DNA of 64,000 nucleotides from Candidatus Zixiibacteriota bacterium (GTDB taxonomy: Bacteria; Zixibacteria; MSB-5A5; GN15; FEB-12), in assembly GCA_021163775.1 (NCBI GenBank), contig JAGGTI010000105.1, positions 354-64,353 of the forward strand. Reading direction: 5' to 3'. The translations under genes were made by a program, and so were the position numbers. Under the pieces are notes generated by a model. That model had not been told where the DNA came from. It made no database searches and was given only the letters and a program-made list of their open reading frames with translations. This document shows positions 50,701 through 62,318 of the stretch, one piece after another. The first letter of the stretch is position 1; each line of letters begins with the position of its first letter.

Positions 50701-53526
50701 TTATTTCTTAGCCTTCTTCTTCTTTGAAGGTGTATGCCTGATAGCCGCCTGAGCCGCAGCCAGACGGGCGATCGGTACGCGATACGGCGAACAGGAAACA
50801 TAGTTGAGACCTATCCGATGGCAGAAATCAATCGAGGCCGGATCACCACCATGCTCGCCACAAATACCAACCTTCAAATCAGGTCGAACCGAGCGACCTT
50901 TCTCGACACCCATAGTAACCAACTGCCCCACTCCCTCAATATCAAGTGAAACAAATGGATCCTTGGGCAGAATACCGGTTTCAACATAGTAATTAAGGAA
51001 CCGACCCGAGTCATCGCGCGAAAAACCCATAGTCATTTGCGTTAGATCATTGGTTCCGAAACTGAAGAATTCAGCTTCCTCAGCAATCTCATTAGCAGTA
51101 AGAGCGGCGCGCGGTACTTCAATCATAGTACCGACCGTGTAGTTCAGAACCTTGGAGCGTTTGCGGGCCGTGACCTCGCGTGCGATCCGATCCACCACTT
51201 CCTTCTGGTGCTTGAACTCGTTGACATGTCCGACCAGAGGAATCATAATTTCCGGAAAGACGTCCTTCTTCTGTCGTTGCAGATCGCTGGCCGCTTCCAA
51301 TATTGCCCGCACCTGCATTTCAGTAATTTCCGGGTAGAAAATGCCCAGACGACAGCCACGGTGTCCCAGCATCGGATTGGATTCGGCTAATTCTTCCAGC
51401 CGTCCAAGAGTCTTCTCCAACGCTTCAAGGTCTTCTTCGTAATTATCATCCTTCTTATCCAGAGCCGCAATTTTGGCTTCGACCTCGTGGTGTTTCGGAA
51501 GGAATTCATGAAGTGGCGGATCCAGGGTACGGATTGTCACAGGGTAACCCTGCATAACATCAAGCAATCCCTTGAAGTCTTTCTTCTGGAGCGGTAGCAA
51601 CTGAGCCAGTGCCTCTTGACGCTCTTCGGTGCTGTCGGCCAGAATCATTTTCTGTACGATCGGAATCCTGTCTTCTGCAAAGAACATATGTTCGGTGCGG
51701 CACAGGCCGATCCCCTCGGCGCCATATTTTACCGCCTGCTTGGCATCCCGCGGAATATCAGCATTGGCACGTACGCCCAAGGTCCGAGTTTCATCAGCCC
51801 ATTTCATCAGCTCAGCAAATTCACCCGAGAGTTCAGGTTCGATAGTATCGACCTTACCCTGAATGATATCACCTGTTGAGCCATTGAGCGTAATCGTGTC
51901 GCCTTCTTTGATCGTCAAACGACCAACCTGGAATATCTTCTTGGACACATTCACCCGTAACGCTTCGGCACCACTTACACAACACTTGCCCATACCTCTG
52001 GCAACTACGGCGGCGTGCGAAGTCATACCTCCACGTGAAGTAAGAATACCGACCGCGACATTCATGCCCTCGATATCATCCGGGCTGGTTTCCTGGCGGA
52101 CCAGAATCGTTGCATGCTTGGAACCCAGGCGAACAACATCTTCAGCCGTGAACACCACGTGACCAGTCACCGCACCTGGTGAAGCCGCAAGTCCGGTCGC
52201 GAGAACATTGTACTTCGCCTTAGGGTCAATACGAGGATGAAGCAAATGATCGAGCTGAGCCGGATCTATTCTCAGAAGCGCCTCTTCGCGAGTAATCAGC
52301 TTCTCTTTAACCATGTCGACCGCGGATTTGATAGCGGCTTGCGCCGTTCGTTTACCGGACCGGGTCTGGAGCATGAAGAGCTCGTTTTCCTGGATAGTAA
52401 ACTCGAAATCCTGTATATCACGATAGTGCCTCTCCAAGCGGTCGGTGATCTCTTTTAACTGCTTGTACACTTTGGGCATTTCACCCTTGAGCTCCACCAA
52501 AGGCTGTGGGGTACGCACACCAGCAACCACATCTTCACCCTGAGCATTGATCAAGAACTCACCATAGAATTCCCTGTCTCCAGTAGCCGGATTACGGGTA
52601 AAGCCCACACCGGTACCAGAATGTTTACCCATGTTACCGAAAACCATAGTTTGGATATTCACTGCCGTACCCAAGCCAGCCTCAATATCGTTAAGCCTGC
52701 GGTAAGTAATGGCTCGCGGATTGTTCCAACTGCGGAATACGGCATCGCGGGACATTTTGAGTTGCACCCGGGGATCGTCCGGGAACGGTTCTCCGGATTT
52801 CCGCTTAACAATCGACTTGAACTTTTTAATAATATCCTTCAGATCGACAGGCTGAAGCGAACTATCCTGACGAATACGCTTATCTTTTTTCTTCTTGGTG
52901 ATAACATCCTCAAAGAGATCCTTGTCGATACCCAGAACAACATTACCGAACATCTGTATGAACCGTCTGTAATTGTCCAGTGCAAATCGTTCGTTGCCCG
53001 TCTTCTCGCCCAAACCCTTCACGGTTTCTTCATTCAAACCAAGGTTAAGTACCGTATCCATCATACCCGGCATCGAAAATTTGGCACCAGAACGTACCGA
53101 AACAAGGAGCGGATCGGTCGGATCGCCAATCTTTTTACCAGTCACTTTTTCGAGACGTTCCAAATAGGCTTCCATCTCGGTTTCGATCGCCGCCGGCACC
53201 GCCATCCCTTCATCGTAGAATAGGTTACAGACGTCTGTCGTAATAGTAAACCCAGGCGGAACCGGTATACCAGCGTTGGTCATTTCAGCCAGACCGGCAC
53301 CTTTACCACCCAACAGGTCACGCATTTCTGAGTTACCTTCAGCCTTGCCCTTTCCGAAGAAATAGCAGGATTTCGGATATTTGACAGATTTCACTTTTGT
53401 CTTGGCCGAAGCCTTCTTTGCTTTAGCCACAGTTTTTTTGGTCTTAGTCTTGTTAGTTGTTTTTGCTCCCACGCTGGTCTTCCTGCCTGCTTTCGCTTTT
53501 GTCTTCTTCGCCTTCTTTGCTGGCAT
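50701..53526 (-). CDS. ppdK: Pyruvate, phosphate dikinase, with an unusual Lys-rich N-terminal extension.
   Basis: 941 aa with LLGGKGAGLAEM, catalytic His loop GGMTSHAAVVARGMGKCCV, and the C-terminal PEP-utilising barrel GICGEHGGDPAS. The first ~45 aa are K/A/T-rich. Confidence 0.93.
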   Translation of the reverse strand: MPAKKAKKTKAKAGRKTSVGAKTTNKTKTKKTVAKAKKASAKTKVKSVKYPKSCYFFGKGKAEGNSEMRDLLGGKGAGLAEMTNAGIPVPPGFTITTDVCNLFYDEGMAVPAAIETEMEAYLERLEKVTGKKIGDPTDPLLVSVRSGAKFSMPGMMDTVLNLGLNEETVKGLGEKTGNERFALDNYRRFIQMFGNVVLGIDKDLFEDVITKKKKDKRIRQDSSLQPVDLKDIIKKFKSIVKRKSGEPFPDDPRVQLKMSRDAVFRSWNNPRAITYRRLNDIEAGLGTAVNIQTMVFGNMGKHSGTGVGFTRNPATGDREFYGEFLINAQGEDVVAGVRTPQPLVELKGEMPKVYKQLKEITDRLERHYRDIQDFEFTIQENELFMLQTRSGKRTAQAAIKSAVDMVKEKLITREEALLRIDPAQLDHLLHPRIDPKAKYNVLATGLAASPGAVTGHVVFTAEDVVRLGSKHATILVRQETSPDDIEGMNVAVGILTSRGGMTSHAAVVARGMGKCCVSGAEALRVNVSKKIFQVGRLTIKEGDTITLNGSTGDIIQGKVDTIEPELSGEFAELMKWADETRTLGVRANADIPRDAKQAVKYGAEGIGLCRTEHMFFAEDRIPIVQKMILADSTEERQEALAQLLPLQKKDFKGLLDVMQGYPVTIRTLDPPLHEFLPKHHEVEAKIAALDKKDDNYEEDLEALEKTLGRLEELAESNPMLGHRGCRLGIFYPEITEMQVRAILEAASDLQRQKKDVFPEIMIPLVGHVNEFKHQKEVVDRIAREVTARKRSKVLNYTVGTMIEVPRAALTANEIAEEAEFFSFGTNDLTQMTMGFSRDDSGRFLNYYVETGILPKDPFVSLDIEGVGQLVTMGVEKGRSVRPDLKVGICGEHGGDPASIDFCHRIGLNYVSCSPYRVPIARLAAAQAAIRHTPSKKKKAKK

Positions 53527-53688: not shown

Positions 53689-54036
53689 TCACATAGTAAA
53701 CAGGCGTTCGCCCTTAATAATTTTCTCCAACATTTTCAGGGTCTTTTCGACCGGAGAATGCATGAGGTCGTTGGTGTTAAATGTTGAACGAACCACCTCA
53801 CGCGAGGCAATCATATTGGATTTACCGTGCCCTATCCGAGCTTTTTTCTTGTGCGTCAAATTGTACTGACGCTGATACTCCTTGGCCTTCTCCTTGTGCG
53901 TCTGGTAGTACCGCCGCTGGTATTCCCGGCGAGCCTCAGCGGTACCCAACTTAGACTCGGGCTGAGGGGGGGGATCCTTCTTGGCAACGGCCTTCTTTTT
54001 CCCTGCCGTTTCTGACTTTTTGGTTCGAGCCATCAA
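53689..54036 (-). CDS. Small basic protein of unknown function.
   Basis: 115 aa with the Lys-rich N-terminus MMARTKKSETAGKKKAVAKK and an Arg/Tyr/Gln-rich helical middle. It has its own flanking terminator candidates. Confidence 0.45.
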   Translation of the reverse strand: MMARTKKSETAGKKKAVAKKDPPPQPESKLGTAEARREYQRRYYQTHKEKAKEYQRQYNLTHKKKARIGHGKSNMIASREVVRSTFNTNDLMHSPVEKTLKMLEKIIKGERLFTM

Positions 54037-54398: not shown

Positions 54399-54440
54399 AA
54401 AAAAAACCAAAAGAAAAAGCCCGCCTCTTATGAGACGAGC
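54399..54440 (-). terminator. Rho-independent terminator closing the membrane-module array.
   Basis: On the minus-strand RNA this reads GCUCGUCUC-auaa-GAGGCGGGC (two G-U pairs) followed by UUUUUCUUUUGGUUUUUUUU. It lies 35 nt after the stop at 54476. Confidence 0.75.
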
Positions 54441-54475
54441 TTTTCTAAAACAGAGTAGTTCAAACTCTCATGCTA

Positions 54476-55303
54476 CTATTGCGGCGAAGTGACGTCTTTA
54501 GAAGTCACGTGACGGTAGATTTCAATAATCGTATAACCAACCACCACTGCTATTAGCAAATAGAAGAAGAACGGGAAACCCCAATGATACGCTTCGTTGG
54601 GTGTATCCCCCAGATCCAGAGCCGCCACTATCCATTGTTGATCGAGGTACTGCATCCGGTTGATAAACAATGATATTCGCGCCATCACAGTAAAACCGAA
54701 TGATGCGCCAAAACCGATCATCAGGATCCAGATACCGAACTTAGCCATGCCACCAAACACACCGGTATGCGCCTTGGAAAAGAAGAAATAGATCAAGGCA
54801 CAAAGCGTACCGACAAAGACCAGCAGTTGAGACAAACCGGACGTGGCATCGAGAAGATTGAAGCCACCGTGACCGAAGAAATCTGACCAGTTGATCGGTG
54901 CCATCATCGCCACCAATTGTTCGTTCACACGGGCTTTCATCTCAAGTGGCACCGCGGCACCGGCACCGATACCGATATACATTGCCAGAGGCCAGCGCGA
55001 GATCCAGGAATAATTCTTGGAGAACCTGGTCCACATCAACATACCCAGAATGGCCGGCAACAGATACCAGGGAGCGCTGGAATCAAGATATAGGAACCAG
55101 GGACTGCCATCATCCAAACGATCATACATCAGTTTCGGAATCATACCGTTGTGCCATAGAATGATCGTGAAATAGCCGGCGGCGGCGCCCACAACCAAAT
55201 GCTCGGCAAACTTGTAGAACGGATTATCCTTGTAAAGAAATGAGAACGTACACAGCGTCAGGAAAGCGGCAAACGTCGTCCAGAGAAAAGTCGTAAAATC
55301 CAT
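54476..55303 (-). CDS. Module subunit B, paralogue 3 (polytopic membrane protein, unknown family).
   Basis: 275 aa. Shares the motifs SFLYKDNPFYKFAE, RWPLA, LIYFFFSKAHTGVFG and GIWILMIGFGASFGFTVMARISL with 58619..59452 and 62297..62938. It has an extra ~45-aa C-terminal extension with one more TM helix. Confidence 0.8.
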   Translation of the reverse strand: MDFTTFLWTTFAAFLTLCTFSFLYKDNPFYKFAEHLVVGAAAGYFTIILWHNGMIPKLMYDRLDDGSPWFLYLDSSAPWYLLPAILGMLMWTRFSKNYSWISRWPLAMYIGIGAGAAVPLEMKARVNEQLVAMMAPINWSDFFGHGGFNLLDATSGLSQLLVFVGTLCALIYFFFSKAHTGVFGGMAKFGIWILMIGFGASFGFTVMARISLFINRMQYLDQQWIVAALDLGDTPNEAYHWGFPFFFYLLIAVVVGYTIIEIYRHVTSKDVTSPQ

Positions 55304-55305
55304 GA

Positions 55306-56190
55306 CTATCTCCCTTCCCGTTGCATACGTTTCTTTTGTCGTCGATTCATGAAATACCCCACGTTGCCAATAATCACAAAGCCAATAATCACCAAGTGAG
55401 CGGCCAACTGTATTCGCATGGAATCTTTGGCATTACCCGGATTGTCGGCTAACTCTTCGTATTCAGCCGCACCAAGCATACCGCCCATGATACCGAATAT
55501 CTGTCCTGACCCAAGATACGGATAGTACTGAGCGGTCGAAACCCCGGTCACACCAATTGCCAGCGGGAAATTAAACCTGCCCTGAGCGTAGGAAATCCAG
55601 TAGTCAGTTGAGTTGGTGCCGGAGATATTAACCGCCCCGGCGATATCATCAAAGTTGTTAACACCCTGCATCATTGGCAGTGAATCCAGCGGTACGCCGT
55701 AATAGTCGAGCGGGAACGGCAGACGGAAATTCTGCCCCATAGCCAACATAACCATCGAAGGATATGGTTTGTAACCTAAGAAACAGTAGTCGATACCGTT
55801 GATAATTTCGCGTGGCGGGTAAGTGACACCGTTGTAGGTCTTCTCCACCAGCATCGAATCGGCAATATCACGCAATGCCTGATCGGCCATGCCCGGCCCG
55901 TTCTGCGACAGGGCAGTCATAAGCACTTTCAGTTCCTTGCGCCAACATTGCTCGACAATGGCCCAGGTCATCGGATGCAACTCCGCCATTGAACCTGGAT
56001 CATAGTCAAGAGGTATGAACATTATCGCACCTTTAGGCAGGGTGTCGATAAAGTTGAAGATCGACCGCACTTCCGGTTCTACGATAATTGGAACTTCGAA
56101 TGGCACGATGTAGGCTATGACGCACACAACGATGAGAAATAGGAAGACCCAGCGCCGATCAAGCGACATCATTTTATCAAAAATATTCAT
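55306..56190 (-). CDS. Module subunit A, paralogue 3 (N- and C-terminal TM anchors flanking a ~230-aa extracytoplasmic domain).
   Basis: 294 aa. Shares the motifs DYDPGSMAELHPM, GIMGGMLGAAEYE and AHLVIIGFVIIGNV plus a basic tail with 59449..60393 and 62956..63981. Confidence 0.8.
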   Translation of the reverse strand: MNIFDKMMSLDRRWVFLFLIVVCVIAYIVPFEVPIIVEPEVRSIFNFIDTLPKGAIMFIPLDYDPGSMAELHPMTWAIVEQCWRKELKVLMTALSQNGPGMADQALRDIADSMLVEKTYNGVTYPPREIINGIDYCFLGYKPYPSMVMLAMGQNFRLPFPLDYYGVPLDSLPMMQGVNNFDDIAGAVNISGTNSTDYWISYAQGRFNFPLAIGVTGVSTAQYYPYLGSGQIFGIMGGMLGAAEYEELADNPGNAKDSMRIQLAAHLVIIGFVIIGNVGYFMNRRQKKRMQREGR

Positions 56191-56205: not shown

Positions 56206-57015
56206 CTAACCCATATACTTTCGTTCAATGCCCAGGATCACTTTCAACCCGGTGGCTACAATCCCCAACCCAACCCCCATAACGATAGCTCTCTGAGCGG
56301 CCAGGTTGGGCACGTTCATAAGCCAGCTGGAGGTTTGCGAGATGTAACTGCCAAAAACCGGTTCCAGGTAGGGGTTGAAACGTAACATTACAATAATCGC
56401 CGACAGGAGCAGAAGCGTCGCCATGATGCTCCGCGCTCGGAAAGCGCGATAAGCGGCCGACGCAATGAAGAAAGCCAACAGCGAAAACATGGTGGCGAAG
56501 ATTGGAATCAGGATGAAGTCAAACGAGTGGACGAACATGTAGGCCTGCAACCCCTCGGACGTGGCGAAATGAAAACTGAAGGCTTTGTCGAAGATACCTA
56601 TCAACAGCGCAGTCAGGGCAAACACCCCCGCCAGTCCGGCAAACATTGCTACTTTCGCGCGTGAGGCCATCGCCTGAATGATCATCAGAAACATACCTAC
56701 CACCGACAACACGAAAGGGAAATACCAGCCCCATTCGGCACCGTTTCTAATCGTGAACCCAAAGACGATAAAGCCAACCAGACCGGCCAGAGTAACATAC
56801 GAGTATTGCCAGCCTATTTTCTTGTTCTTGATCTTATCCACGTGCACTCTTATCAGCGACCAGATACCGATTGCAAGGGCAAAGATACCAATGATGATGA
56901 TCCAGTCGAGAAGGTACTCGTAGAGCCACTCGGATTTTTCGTGCGGCATAAAAAACTGGAACAGCAGAAAGGCGCCGAAGACAAGAACCAGTAATCTTGG
57001 AAATTGTTGTTTCAT
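56206..57015 (-). CDS. Module subunit D, paralogue 2 (polytopic membrane protein, unknown family).
   Basis: 269 aa. Shares RVHVDK, LLAFFIASAAYRAFRA, PNLAAQRAIVMGVGLG and ILGIERKYMG with 60359..61030. Confidence 0.8.
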   Translation of the reverse strand: MKQQFPRLLVLVFGAFLLFQFFMPHEKSEWLYEYLLDWIIIIGIFALAIGIWSLIRVHVDKIKNKKIGWQYSYVTLAGLVGFIVFGFTIRNGAEWGWYFPFVLSVVGMFLMIIQAMASRAKVAMFAGLAGVFALTALLIGIFDKAFSFHFATSEGLQAYMFVHSFDFILIPIFATMFSLLAFFIASAAYRAFRARSIMATLLLLSAIIVMLRFNPYLEPVFGSYISQTSSWLMNVPNLAAQRAIVMGVGLGIVATGLKVILGIERKYMG

Positions 57016-57028
57016 TCTCTGCTATCTC

Positions 57029-58591
57029 CTAACCCGACACATGGAAAGCCTCGGCAAAACCGGGCCACCCGAACGCCGTTGTGAGCATACCCACAATAGC
57101 AATAATCACAATCGCCGCTTTAGCCCAATCCTGAGCTTTGAGCGAACCAAGTAGAATCGGCTCACGTCCCAGGTAGGCGGAGGCGGCGTATAACTCTTCA
57201 CCAATAAGCGTGTAATCACACGCCACGATGAAAAACGGAATCTGGGCAATTTCATCGGTGCCAGCGATCTGGATTGATCCGGCCAACGCGCCAGTCTCTG
57301 CCAAAAGCAGTGACTCGGCAAAAAACTTACCCATATATATATTGGTGGCTGGCAGTTCGCGAAGCATGGTTCCGTTCACCGCGGCCACGTAGGCAAACTG
57401 CAGATTGGTAACAAAGTGAACCGCATCTTCATCGTAATCATCCGGACGACCAGCGTCCAGATAAGATGATTTTACCACTTCCTGAGCTACGGCCATAACG
57501 ATCGGATCATAACACGGAACAATGATCGGCGTTTGATACTCGGCCACTTTCTTTGCCACTCGACCCAATATGGTAAACGACGCGATAGTTGCCACCATAT
57601 CGGCAGAACCCAGCCCAAGAACGTACAAGATGGGACGTCCCATTTCGGTAGCACGACCTATGGCATCATCGACAGCCTCAATACCGGCTAATGGTCGGAC
57701 ATACAACTCCTTGCCCTTCTTGGCCACCTGAACAAACAACACCGTGAGTACAAAGAATACCAGCACGAAGATCAGGACCGGAATCTTGCCAGTGTGAAAC
57801 CACTGACCTGAACTATGCACCGGACCAACTAGGATCGCTTCGGAGCGTAGCGTAGTATCAGCGGACACCGCTTCTACCCGGTAATACAAATCAGTGTAGT
57901 CGGGGAAGAAATCAGGCGCAGTGAAATCCTTGGATCCGGAGTTCTCATAGCTGGTGTTGCCAGCCACAACCGCTCCAAGGTATTCCCAGTCTCCGTCGTT
58001 CGGATACTGGTTGTGAGCCTCGGGTAATTGCGCGAGTGCTTCCTCAAATCGAATCTGGAGCGGTTCCAAACCGTCCTTGATTTCCGGCAACCGGGCGGTC
58101 ATCACAGCAATCGTGTCCTGCAGAGCCGTGATAGCATAGTCGGTGGTCAGCACAAACGCACTGTCGTCTGCCGGAATCGATACTTCAAACCGAATCGACT
58201 CAAGCTTGCCGGGGTCTTCCCGCAGTTCATTAAGCGCATGTTCAGCTCTGGGGATATCCGACCGGAACGCCCGCATAGTCGATCGAGCGTTGGACCGCTC
58301 ACCACGCAGTGAGTCAACTTGATCCATCAAAGATGGGAACCAGCGGAATATCTGGTACGACAGGACATTATTCTGTCCCTTACCATCATCGACAGAAAGA
58401 TCCCAAGTCAAAGTTATAGAATGACCGTGATCGTTATCGGTATCGACCGCCTGCAAGTTGGTGACCGGAGCCGGTGGTGGCTGAACCGGGGTAACACCCG
58501 CCGAGTCAACCAAAACCGAATCGGTTTGCGCCAGAGCCGTTGCGCCGACGCATAGCGACAGCACAGCAACAAAAGTAATAATACTTCTCAT
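57029..58591 (-). CDS. Module subunit C, paralogue 2 (signal peptide, FN3-like ectodomain with insertion, TM helix, conserved ~240-aa C-terminal core).
   Basis: 520 aa. Contains AGIEAVDDAIGRATEMGRPILY, YVAAVNG, FFAESLLLAETG and PFFIVACDYTLIGEELYAASAYL, shared with 61035..62318. Confidence 0.8.
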   Translation of the reverse strand: MRSIITFVAVLSLCVGATALAQTDSVLVDSAGVTPVQPPPAPVTNLQAVDTDNDHGHSITLTWDLSVDDGKGQNNVLSYQIFRWFPSLMDQVDSLRGERSNARSTMRAFRSDIPRAEHALNELREDPGKLESIRFEVSIPADDSAFVLTTDYAITALQDTIAVMTARLPEIKDGLEPLQIRFEEALAQLPEAHNQYPNDGDWEYLGAVVAGNTSYENSGSKDFTAPDFFPDYTDLYYRVEAVSADTTLRSEAILVGPVHSSGQWFHTGKIPVLIFVLVFFVLTVLFVQVAKKGKELYVRPLAGIEAVDDAIGRATEMGRPILYVLGLGSADMVATIASFTILGRVAKKVAEYQTPIIVPCYDPIVMAVAQEVVKSSYLDAGRPDDYDEDAVHFVTNLQFAYVAAVNGTMLRELPATNIYMGKFFAESLLLAETGALAGSIQIAGTDEIAQIPFFIVACDYTLIGEELYAASAYLGREPILLGSLKAQDWAKAAIVIIAIVGMLTTAFGWPGFAEAFHVSG

Positions 58592-58618: not shown

Positions 58619-59452
58619 CTAACTAATTATTCCTAACCAATCTTTAAACAGAAATGTCAGACGCCCCACCAGGAGAGAAATACGACCCATTACGGTGTAA
58701 CCAAACGAAGCGCCAAATGTAATCATCAATATCCAAATACCGACCCGAGAAGCCTTACCAAACAGACCGGTGTGTTCTTTTGAGAAGAAAAAATAGATCA
58801 ACCCGCAGACAACCCCAAGGAAAATGACCAAATTGGAAAACATCGCAACAAATTGACCGTCAGCGGCGAGTGAGAAGTTGGCAAAGAAATGGCCGAAGCC
58901 ATGCCAATCAACCAGAAGCGGCACAAAAGTAGAAGAAATCTGGCTCATGAAATCTGACCGCAGGTAACGAACCAGATTCAGCCCGGCAAAAGTGCCGACG
59001 ATAAACGCCAGCGGCCAGCGTGACAACCAGCCTACTTTGGGCACCAGACGGAACAGGAGGAAGGCTCCCAGAATGATCGGGATGAAATACAACAGAGGAT
59101 ACGGCAGGGTCAGGAAACCAAAATCAAGTTCGCCGCCCAAATAAGGCACTCCAAACGCCTCCGAAAGTCCCTCGGATAAGCGTGGTACCAAATTACCGAC
59201 AATAGTTGACCAAAAGCCGACACACATCCAGTAAGCCGCCGACACGCCGACGAACAAGTGCTCCGCAAATTTGTAATACGCGTTGTCCTTATACATAAAG
59301 GACATAATTGCCAGCGTCAGGAACGAGGCCAGTGTCACAAGAAAAGCGTCTTGGATCGCATTGTCGCCGTCGATAGTACCCGCCTTGAGTACCCAACTCA
59401 GAACAAAGATGAGACACACCACCGCAAATACGATCAAACTGGTTCGCTTCAT
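58619..59452 (-). CDS. Module subunit B, paralogue 2.
   Basis: 277 aa with the family B motifs (SFMYKDNAYYKFAE, RWPLAFIVG, LIYFFFSKEHTGLFG). It has an extra N-terminal TM helix and an ATGA overlap with the preceding A gene. Confidence 0.8.
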   Translation of the reverse strand: MKRTSLIVFAVVCLIFVLSWVLKAGTIDGDNAIQDAFLVTLASFLTLAIMSFMYKDNAYYKFAEHLFVGVSAAYWMCVGFWSTIVGNLVPRLSEGLSEAFGVPYLGGELDFGFLTLPYPLLYFIPIILGAFLLFRLVPKVGWLSRWPLAFIVGTFAGLNLVRYLRSDFMSQISSTFVPLLVDWHGFGHFFANFSLAADGQFVAMFSNLVIFLGVVCGLIYFFFSKEHTGLFGKASRVGIWILMITFGASFGYTVMGRISLLVGRLTFLFKDWLGIIS

Positions 59453-61034: not shown

Positions 61035-62318
61035 TCAATCCGTTACGACAAACCAACTCCTGATCAATTCCGTAGCACTGCTCATCCACTCCGCGCCAGT
61101 GAGGGTCGCAAGCGTGGTCAACGTCACACCAATAATGATCGCCGCCATAGCAATCCCTTTGCCCACATCCTGACCCTTGAGAGATCCTAACGCCTTGGGC
61201 TCATCCGAAAGATAGGCCGAGGCCGCAAACAGTTCTTCACCGATCAAGGTGAAATCACAGGCGGCAATAAAGAACGGCAATTGCGCCGGTCGTGCTGTCC
61301 CGGCAATCTGAATAGCGCCAACCGAGTTGCCCGTTTCGGCTAAGATCAATGATTCGGCAAAGAACGCACCTAAGAGAAAAACCGTCGCCGGCTTTTCACG
61401 CACCATAATACCATTAACCGCCGCCACATACCCAAACTGTTCGTCGGTAATATAACTGACCATGTCGTCGGTGTAAGCATCCGGCCGACCTGCGGTCTGA
61501 TATCCGGCTTTGATCGTCTCACGTGCCGCGGTCATCACCAACGAACGCGCTACCGGCATGCGGATTTTAATATCGTAATTGGCCACTTGCTCGGCCACGT
61601 GTCCCAATATCGTCAATGAAGCCAGCGTCTGGACATCATCCATATCATTAATACCGGGGATATACAGAATCGGGCGGCCCATTTCGGTCGCACGTCCGAT
61701 AGCCTCGTCAACAGCTTCCAGCCCGGCGATCTTCCGTACAAACAGCTTGCGGCCCTTTGTAGCCGTCTTGATGAAAACCATCACCGCCCCACAGACCACT
61801 ATGGTCATAACCATCAGATTCAACCAGTTCCACTTCAGCCACTCCTGTTCCGGGGTGATGGCCGCCGTGACGACCGATTGGGCCGAGGCGTCTTCAGCTA
61901 AAGCTAACACATAGAATTGATACGAGCTGTCACGATGGAGTTCCTCGACCCTGAAAGTTGAGACTTCTGGTAATAGTTCGGCAATACGGTGGGGTTCCCC
62001 GTTGTTACATATCTGATATACTTCATATGCGGTCACCCGACCGGTTACAGGGATATCATCGATTGATGGTACCCAGGTAAGCATAAGTTTGTCGCCATCA
62101 TCGTATTTGAAATCCTGAGCCAGCAGTGATGTCACCGGTGCCAGCGGCGTTGTCGCCGTGGTATCGACAACTTCGGTTTCACCCTGAGCCAGAGATGCGG
62201 AGTTAGTCAGGAATAGAAAAAAGAAAACAAGTGGGATCAACAAACAAGAACACAGGACCGGCGGTCTCGCGCCCGTTGTCGATCGGCGGGGTGACACTAT
62301 TGAATCAGCCCTAACCAA
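61035..62318 (-). CDS. Module subunit C, paralogue 1.
   Basis: 427 aa with a signal-like N-terminus, an FN3-like ectodomain (VTSLLAQDFKYDDGDKLMLTWVPS...TAYEVYQ...YQFYVLA), a TM helix and the conserved core AGLEAVDEAIGRATEMGRPILY. An alternative GTG start at 62297 overlaps the B1 stop as TAGTG. Confidence 0.8.
   Translation of the reverse strand: MVRADSIVSPRRSTTGARPPVLCSCLLIPLVFFFLFLTNSASLAQGETEVVDTTATTPLAPVTSLLAQDFKYDDGDKLMLTWVPSIDDIPVTGRVTAYEVYQICNNGEPHRIAELLPEVSTFRVEELHRDSSYQFYVLALAEDASAQSVVTAAITPEQEWLKWNWLNLMVMTIVVCGAVMVFIKTATKGRKLFVRKIAGLEAVDEAIGRATEMGRPILYIPGINDMDDVQTLASLTILGHVAEQVANYDIKIRMPVARSLVMTAARETIKAGYQTAGRPDAYTDDMVSYITDEQFGYVAAVNGIMVREKPATVFLLGAFFAESLILAETGNSVGAIQIAGTARPAQLPFFIAACDFTLIGEELFAASAYLSDEPKALGSLKGQDVGKGIAMAAIIIGVTLTTLATLTGAEWMSSATELIRSWFVVTD

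Follow-up and report, generated by a model that had tools for sequence, protein, structure and literature searches.

Why does one of several related membrane proteins, encoded in a tandem gene array of a Zixibacteria genome, carry a long additional segment in its exported part, and what might this segment do? The protein, termed C2, is encoded on the minus strand of a window of 64,000 nucleotides, which corresponds to C3:354-64353 (C3 being the contig that carries the array) of a metagenome-assembled genome (MAG) with 130 contigs and a completeness of 77%. An earlier note on this DNA had described C2 and its paralogue C1 as proteins with an invariant C-terminal membrane core and a variable, secreted head resembling a fibronectin type III (FN3) domain, and C2 as distinguished by an insertion in this head. 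Both open reading frames (ORFs) are present as described (C2, 520 amino acids [aa]; C1, 427 aa, alternatively 420 aa). The insertion turned out to be an alpha-helical hairpin, which entered the C-C' loop of the FN3 domain once, in the lineage of the C2-type paralogues. It is fairly probable that C2 acts as the DUF6754 subunit in the third module of a tandem set of three inner-membrane modules with the gene order C-D-A-B, and that its FN3 domain and hairpin arm serve a periplasmic role. The features of both proteins, all on the minus strand, are as follows.

57029..58591, minus: C2 gene, DUF6754 subunit of the third module (ORF, 520 aa; PF20539 at residues 262-514)
58529..58591, minus: predicted signal peptide, C2 residues 1-21, with the cleavage motif A-L-A/Q (hydrophobic segment 3-21; cleavage inferred)
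58463..58528, minus: Pro-rich linker VTPVQPPPAPVT, residues 22-43 (low model confidence at 22-33)
58334..58462, minus: FN3 strands A, B and C, residues 44-86 (AlphaFold2; includes D50-x3-D54-x-G56...W63)
58013..58333, minus: alpha-helical hairpin, residues 87-193 (helix 87-132, tip 133-149, helix 150-193; AlphaFold2, predicted local distance difference test [pLDDT] 94-98)
57818..58012, minus: FN3 strands C', E, F and G, residues 194-258 (AlphaFold2; base motif Y196-P197..G200.W202, strand F YYRVEAV; conserved columns)
57719..57793, minus: transmembrane helix 1, residues 267-291, followed by KKGK (Kyte-Doolittle peak 272-290; helix in the model)
57128..57694, minus: predicted cytoplasmic Rossmann-like alpha/beta domain, residues 300-488 (model of the C1 equivalent; positive-inside count)
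57068..57124, minus: transmembrane helix 2, residues 490-508, followed by a short periplasmic tail (hydropathy, models, positive-inside count)
61035..62318, minus: C1 gene, paralogue of the second module lacking the insertion (ORF; 427 or 420 aa)
61869..62147, minus: FN3 domain of C1 without insertion, about residues 58-150 (sub-threshold match to Pfam fn3)
61038..61871, minus: C1 core, residues 150-427, with transmembrane helix 1, Rossmann-like domain and transmembrane helix 2 (AlphaFold2)

A helical hairpin in the FN3 ectodomain of C2

Full-length C2 was modelled with AlphaFold2 on the basis of an alignment of 108 homologues. Residues 40-260 were predicted with pLDDT values mostly above 90, and strands were found at residues 44-50, 58-64, 78-86, 200-209, 214-218, 235-242 and 253-258. 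Together they form the seven-strand sandwich (A-B-E / C-C'-F-G) by which an FN3 fold is recognized in a confident model, and its C-C' loop is interrupted by an antiparallel hairpin of two helices of about 45 residues each. In a Foldseek search against the PDB, the C2 model matched FN3 domains of fibronectin, LAR, KIAA0343 and cytokine receptors with probabilities of 0.94-1.00 (among them 3t1w, 1uen, 6tpu, 8dh9 and 1a22). An exhaustive phmmer search with the C2 ectodomain as query detected proteins with 5-25 repeated matches, for example P0243 (E 2e-58), in which PF00041 was found over 8 stretches at E 2e-77. The sandwich, the structural matches and the similarity to multi-FN3 repeats confirm that the secreted N-terminal part is an FN3 domain, as had been claimed.

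The profile of the Pfam family fn3 (PF00041) recognizes this domain less well. The ectodomain of C1 scored 22.1 bits (E 1.8e-4), which is below the threshold of 25 bits, and C2 gave no match to the fn3 profile, regardless of whether the insert was kept or removed. Matches at E <=0.01 occurred in 17 of 73 ectodomains of the family, and some C1 orthologues possess PF00041 matches or are named "fibronectin type III domain-containing protein". With the FN3 domains of PF00041 and of the giant multi-FN3 surface proteins of uncultured bacteria, C2 shares the seven strands, the Trp of strand B, the Tyr of strand C, the Y-Y-x-V-x-A pattern of strand F and the matches to the repeats at the sequence level. 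It differs from them in being a single domain tethered to a transmembrane helix, in carrying a hairpin of ~107 aa in the C-C' loop and in scoring below the Pfam threshold.

The part of C2 that matches the repeats of the giant proteins is the N-terminal half of the FN3 domain (P-x-P-V..L.A.D..ND.G..I.L.W..S.DD). These giants (P0242-P0261 and others) comprise 1,000-7,000 aa and originate from metagenomes. Four of them were scanned with Pfam and are multi-FN3 proteins, one with a sub-threshold FlgD_ig match near its C-terminus (23.2 versus 27 bits). Judged by these matches, the FN3 domain of the DUF6754 proteins belongs to the FN3 subtype of the giant proteins.

The position of the insert was determined with a hidden Markov model (HMM) built from 140 ectodomains lacking it. 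The alignment of this HMM to C2 was split into residues 5-83 and residues 198-251, and C2 therefore contains ~114-124 extra residues at one site. Together with the modelled hairpin at residues 87-193, this split establishes that the helical insertion between FN3 strands is real. Both helices are amphipathic at 100-103 degrees, and the fractions of shuffled sequences reaching the observed moment were 0.001 and 0.016. In the exhaustive phmmer search with the C2 ectodomain, matches to the hairpin segment were limited to C2-type proteins.

An insertion of this kind could arise from an assembly error or a frameshift, which was not borne out. Records of an identical protein of 520 aa exist for 4 contigs, and independent assemblies from JGI, NCBI, ENA and Logan contain full-length orthologues (519-533 aa, 60-90% identity) that carry the insert. 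The C2 homologues that are named derive from Zixibacteria MAGs.

Relatives of 451-471 aa and of ~500-506 aa possess shorter hairpins. The inserts fall into size groups of about 60 and about 120 residues, between which forms of ~105 residues occur, and occupancy of the alignment drops to ~42% precisely over the hairpin tip (C2 residues 121-160); according to the alignment, the length differences among orthologues are deletions in the tip. The base of the hairpin is conserved, its two sides being formed by F-R-W84-x-P86 and A-H-x-x-Y196-P197-x-x-G200-x-W202. In a FastTree tree calculated from the core only, in which the insert columns play no part, all hairpin-bearing proteins (58/58) fell into one clade of 59 leaves with a support of 97. 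These results show that the hairpin was inserted once into the C-C' loop of the FN3 domain, in the lineage of the C2-type paralogue, and that its base is fixed by W84/P86 and Y196/P197/G200/W202 while the length of the tip varies. Four apparent inserts outside the C2 clade were rejected as other architectures, namely tandem FN3 domains (L046, L082) and C-terminal extensions (L050).

The remaining ectodomain is likewise not uniformly variable. Across phyla, FN3-bearing members retain D50, D54, G56 and W63 (C2 numbering) with a conservation of at least 90%, and the same level is reached, among the 108 C2 homologues, by A21 and Q22 at the predicted cleavage site. The proposed variable head was thus found to be the most divergent part of the module and to vary in architecture, but it contains the fixed positions D50, D54, G56 and W63, and it is conserved between orthologues of any one paralogue type.

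The signal-peptidase site predicted in C2 (58526-58531) leaves an N-terminal Gln (A/Q), as it does in C1, in C0 and in the copy on contig C74, i.e. in all four signal-peptide-bearing paralogues of this genome. This pattern recalls the "Q-rule" of the Bacteroidetes, which was reported not to be valid for the whole FCB group (PMC5837995). A search of this genome (77% complete) for a glutaminyl cyclase of the plant/bacterial type (PF05096) gave no match.

The conserved core and its cytoplasmic domain

A comparison of C2 with C1 by BLASTP yielded a match over 306 columns of the C-terminal part with 46% identity (E 3e-86), which reproduced the short, nearly identical blocks noticed earlier (AG.EAVD.AIGRATEMGRPILY, YVAAVNG, FFAESL.LAETG and PFFI.ACD.TLIGEEL.AASAYL). 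A second, N-terminal match connected C2 residues 4-83 with C1 residues 27-102 (33% identity, E 5e-9), and C2 residues ~84-212 had no BLASTP counterpart in C1. The cores of the two proteins are ~51% identical, their mature ectodomains ~35%. Both proteins belong to PF20539 (DUF6754; model length 257 positions, gathering threshold 27 bits), which matched C2 with 384 bits (E about 1e-115, model positions 3-255) and C1 with 408 bits (E 1e-122, model positions 2-253).

Global identities were also determined among all paralogues of this genome, which include five C cores. Within the module, conservation is highest in the C core (46-59%), followed by B (42-56%), D (36-51%) and A (27-39%), and lowest in the mature C ectodomain (24-35%). 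The N-terminal parts hence differ, as had been stated. The term "invariant" applies to the short blocks of the core, but not to the core as a whole.

In the first AlphaFold2 model, which relied on an alignment of close relatives, the core of C2 had pLDDT values below 50. The core of C1 (residues 150-427) was therefore remodelled with 101 diverse sequences from several phyla, 34 columns of which are invariant, and reached a pLDDT of 94.2 and a pTM of 0.85. It consists of a transmembrane helix, a six-stranded alpha/beta Rossmann-like domain and a long C-terminal helix ending as transmembrane helix 2. The blocks FFAESL.LAETG and IQIAG correspond to a helix and a strand, respectively, and PFFI.ACD.TLIGEEL to a helix-strand-helix element. 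Among the 101 homologues, Lys and Arg residues (K+R) averaged 4.2 in the 14 residues after transmembrane helix 1 versus 0.75 in the 13 residues before it, and 2.1 in the segment before transmembrane helix 2 versus 0.8 in the tail after it. By this bias, the conserved domain lies inside the cell, and ectodomain and tail lie outside it. According to model and charge distribution, the ~190-aa Rossmann-like domain is thus cytoplasmic and located between two transmembrane helices. The "constant membrane core" of the earlier note has to be corrected accordingly, as the conserved part is mostly a cytoplasmic domain, which is flanked by membrane segments. A superfamily was not assigned to it; Foldseek returned only generic Rossmann folds (GT-B halves, Moco carrier/LOG-like proteins, SIS, MurG).

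C1 and C2 have the layout of DUF6754 proteins, with two transmembrane helices and a conserved domain, and match the Pfam model end to end; the family itself has no described function or structure. Existing annotations of PF20539 proteins ("DUF6754 domain-containing protein", "fibronectin type III domain-containing protein") do not set the subfamily with a hairpin in the FN3 domain apart. C2 is thus a member of a catalogued, uncharacterised family, and the hairpin-in-FN3 subfamily is an undescribed variant of it.

Further searches added little to this assignment. Pfam and NCBIfam searches of C, D, A and B gave only DUF6754 and weak fn3 matches. D2, A3 and B3 had no match in Pfam, NCBIfam, PDB or PADLOC; PDB sequence profile searches found none for C, A, B and D, and the anti-phage defence models of PADLOC matched none of C1, C2, D2, A3 and B3. 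A full-text literature search retrieved no paper naming DUF6754 and nothing relevant for PF20539 or PF13941.

Modules, related loci and a putative ATPase partner

According to the ORF list, four protein families account for 10 genes on the minus strand between positions 54476 and 63981. Together with the remaining contig, they form three tandem modules with the gene order C-D-A-B.

Module 1: C0 (425 aa, just beyond the window), D0, A1, B1
Module 2: C1 (427 aa), D1, A2, B2
Module 3: C2 (520 aa), D2, A3, B3
56206-57015, minus: D2, subunit of the module of C2 (ORF)
55306-56190, minus: A3, subunit of the module of C2 (ORF)
54476-55303, minus: B3, subunit of the module of C2 (ORF)
54414..54445, minus: strong intrinsic-terminator-like hairpin closing the array 3' of B3 (14-pair stem followed by a T run)

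The public record of C1 comprises 420 aa and starts about 7 codons later than the longest ORF, whose start is a TTG at 62318. The alternative start adjoins the stop of B1, and the true start of C1 is uncertain (62297-62318). Module 3 is elaborated as a whole: D2, which contains an insert of ~45 aa, has 269 aa versus 215-223 aa in D0/D1, and B2 (277 aa, 58619-59452) and B3 (275 aa) are longer than B1 (213 aa). In L041, L044 and L083, a long C is also accompanied by a long D, which is not the case in L056. Immediately downstream of the array, a small protein rich in Lys and a pyruvate phosphate dikinase whose N-terminus is extended by a Lys/Ala/Thr-rich stretch are encoded (window 50701-53526 and 53689-54036), an arrangement that had been noticed earlier as well.

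Two more single modules are located on contigs C74 and C7 of the same genome, and their C proteins (298 and 310 aa) lack an ectodomain, as do many C proteins of relatives. The surroundings of the ectodomain-less module are conserved in Zixibacteria (contig C74:4987-10991; loci L006-L025), with a PtsP/EI-like PEP-utilising enzyme and a phosphosugar isomerase upstream and a nucleotidyltransferase, metK and ahcY downstream.

All 61 genomes sampled from the phylum Zixibacteria contain PF20539, mostly in five copies. In many of these genomes, an open-frame copy of ~420-460 aa is followed by a copy of 490-684 aa ~3.5 kb downstream. With one genome per species, 79 related loci were collected from Zixibacteria, Eisenbacteria, Cloacimonadota, WOR-3, Stahlbacteria, Edwardsbacteria, Rifleibacterium and others. 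In all of them (79/79), the order C-D-A-B on one strand is kept wherever the genes are present. The length of C ranges from 284 to 814 aa across these loci, whereas D, A and B are mostly constant in length. The ectodomain may be absent or may consist of a single FN3 domain, two FN3 domains, an FN3 domain with the hairpin or an FN3 domain with a C-terminal extension; further types are a probably propeller-like ectodomain of 556 aa and Ala/Pro/Glu-rich disordered segments. These data show that the FN3 ectodomain is accessory and exchangeable, and the ectodomain is a family-wide hot spot for domain change.

Extreme C variants, among them those at L078:4318-6762 of a Candidatus Bruticola MAG, L047, L083 and L048, include the protein with the propeller-like ectodomain, another of 795 aa with ~360 residues after the DUF6754 core, and others with apparently disordered, Ala/Pro/Glu/Thr-rich ectodomains without FN3.

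Of the 79 loci, about 25 (in several phyla) carry the genes of a MutL/GlmL-family ATPase and of a barrel protein next to C-D-A-B, usually immediately upstream (for example L039, L040, L043, L050, L055, L064, L065 and L068). The ATPase comprises ~600 aa, has an actin fold and matches PF13941 at E 2e-123, and the partner gene product of ~375 aa shows a weak barrel-sandwich-hybrid signature. The homologues of both proteins in this genome (63% and 55% identical to the queries) are encoded on contig C83, with tolQ/tolR/tolA/tolB-like genes directly downstream of the ATPase pair. A secreted protein of 264 aa is encoded between the ATPase and hybrid-barrel genes on C83.

Compared with the C-D-A-B modules that are accompanied by the GlmL/MutL-type ATPase, the present array has the same four families in the same order. 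It differs in that the module is tripled in tandem, with two additional single copies, and in that the ATPase pair lies on another contig. One ATPase pair for five membrane modules may, by analogy, resemble transporters that share an energising module.

Possible roles of the ectodomain and its hairpin

In the reading favoured here, the signal peptide would be cleaved. Mature C2 exposes its FN3 domain in the periplasm, tied to transmembrane helix 1. This helix leads to the Rossmann-like domain in the cytoplasm, and transmembrane helix 2 returns a short tail to the outside. The cytoplasmic domain might be the working or docking part, and its probable contacts are the GlmL/MutL-type ATPase, with its actin fold, and the hybrid-barrel protein. 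The FN3 domain would be an accessory, paralogue-specific periplasmic element, which may dock on the complex via its invariant loop motif, and the hairpin would extend as an arm of ~65 Angstrom towards a partner, i.e. another subunit, a neighbouring complex or an envelope component. Such an arm could give module 3 a distinct periplasmic reach or partner. A paralogue-specific periplasmic adaptor role of the C2 ectodomain is plausible. The C ectodomain might also be the part that determines specificity, as had been proposed before.

Several points weigh against this reading. Subunit A, which also has a periplasmic domain, is nearly as divergent as the C ectodomain (27-39%), so that divergence does not single out C as the subunit for specificity. 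The ATPase and barrel genes of this genome are not in the array but at C83:4042-7898. The tree is a quick FastTree calculation with midpoint rooting, and half of its sequences were recruited by their similarity to C2. In the structural comparisons, the E-values of the FN3 matches were only 0.04-0.3, which can be attributed to the use of the whole 520-aa model as query; the whole ectodomain had no significant Foldseek neighbour (E >=0.04), and neither had the core (best E 5e-3, TM-score ~0.3). The orientation of the arm has to be considered as well. In the standard FN3 topology, the A-B and C-C' loops share a pole with the C-terminus. In C2, the FN3 domain is joined to transmembrane helix 1 by a linker of 8 residues, and a location close to the membrane is hence probable for the D-x3-D-x-G motif of the A-B loop as well as for the base of the hairpin. 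By analogy with this topology, the hairpin may run along the membrane or the complex and not straight outwards. Finally, the functional roles of C2 are reached by inference, and a characterised homologue is lacking.

A purely structural role of ectodomain and hairpin, which is rather unlikely in our view, would also account for many observations. The FN3 domain would then stabilise or oligomerise the complex, for example by bundling of neighbouring hairpins, and its variation would be neutral drift of a scaffold. This would fit the D-x3-D-x-G...W motif, which is common to all FN3-bearing paralogues across phyla and suggests a common docking role, as well as the existence of paralogues without an ectodomain, the low conservation of the hairpin (30-48% identity to C2 among homologues) and the drift of its length between size classes inside one clade. 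However, the paralogue types and the hairpin are retained across many genera of Zixibacteria, the amphipathicity of the hairpin is maintained, and the radically different ectodomains of other lineages (propeller-like, two FN3 domains) are more typical of adaptive modules.

An extension of the favoured periplasmic role, which we consider doubtful, is that the hairpins of several protomers form a strut or conduit from an ATP-driven machine of C-D-A-B and the GlmL-like ATPase to the outer envelope, and that the paralogous modules, which differ in their heads, are devoted to different substrates or partners in the envelope.

Very improbable is the related idea that the hairpin is the arm of a periplasmic adaptor like those of the membrane fusion protein (MFP) family, with C2 copies forming a helical barrel or strut to an outer-membrane or peptidoglycan component and module 3 spanning the envelope. 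The Foldseek list does contain the hairpin adaptors AcrA, MacA and EmrA as well as prefoldin, the design of a beta domain split by a long antiparallel alpha-hairpin is the same, and the length classes would suit a spacing function. These matches are weak, however (E 0.04-0.4, probability 0.1-0.7, TM-score ~0.1), C1 and C2 have no HlyD/MFP match in Pfam or NCBIfam, and the operon is without an outer-membrane factor gene. In addition, an arm of ~65 Angstrom is too short to span the periplasm alone, and in an FN3 domain of canonical topology the C-C' loop points to the pole near the membrane. The likeness to AcrA, MacA and EmrA, in which a hairpin-split beta domain likewise projects into the periplasm from an inner-membrane complex, may thus be regarded as an analogy only. 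In contrast to the HlyD-family adaptors, the host domain of the hairpin in C2 is an FN3 domain and not a lipoyl/barrel-sandwich domain, and a beta-barrel or membrane-proximal domain is absent.

That the insertion is an artefact of assembly, frameshift or mobile DNA, or that the core is a membrane-embedded ion pathway, can practically be dismissed on computational grounds: the MAG is fragmented and the hydrophobic stretches of the core contain invariant Glu and Asp, but the frame is intact, the identical protein occurs on 4 contigs, orthologues from independent assemblies carry the insert, which is modelled with pLDDT above 94, and the core was modelled as a soluble alpha/beta domain (pLDDT 94) with a cytoplasmic charge bias, in which the hydrophobic stretches are helices and strands.

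DUF6754 modules are present in Zixibacteria, usually in five copies, and occur in several other uncultured phyla. The results on C2 provide three experimental handles, namely a cytoplasmic Rossmann-like domain, an exchangeable FN3 domain and, in one lineage, an arm of tunable length. They show which part would serve as bait for the ATPase, which part would have to be swapped or deleted in studies of specificity, and which paralogues should be compared. The beta-sandwich split by a long alpha-hairpin represents an independent reinvention of the adaptor design of efflux pumps.

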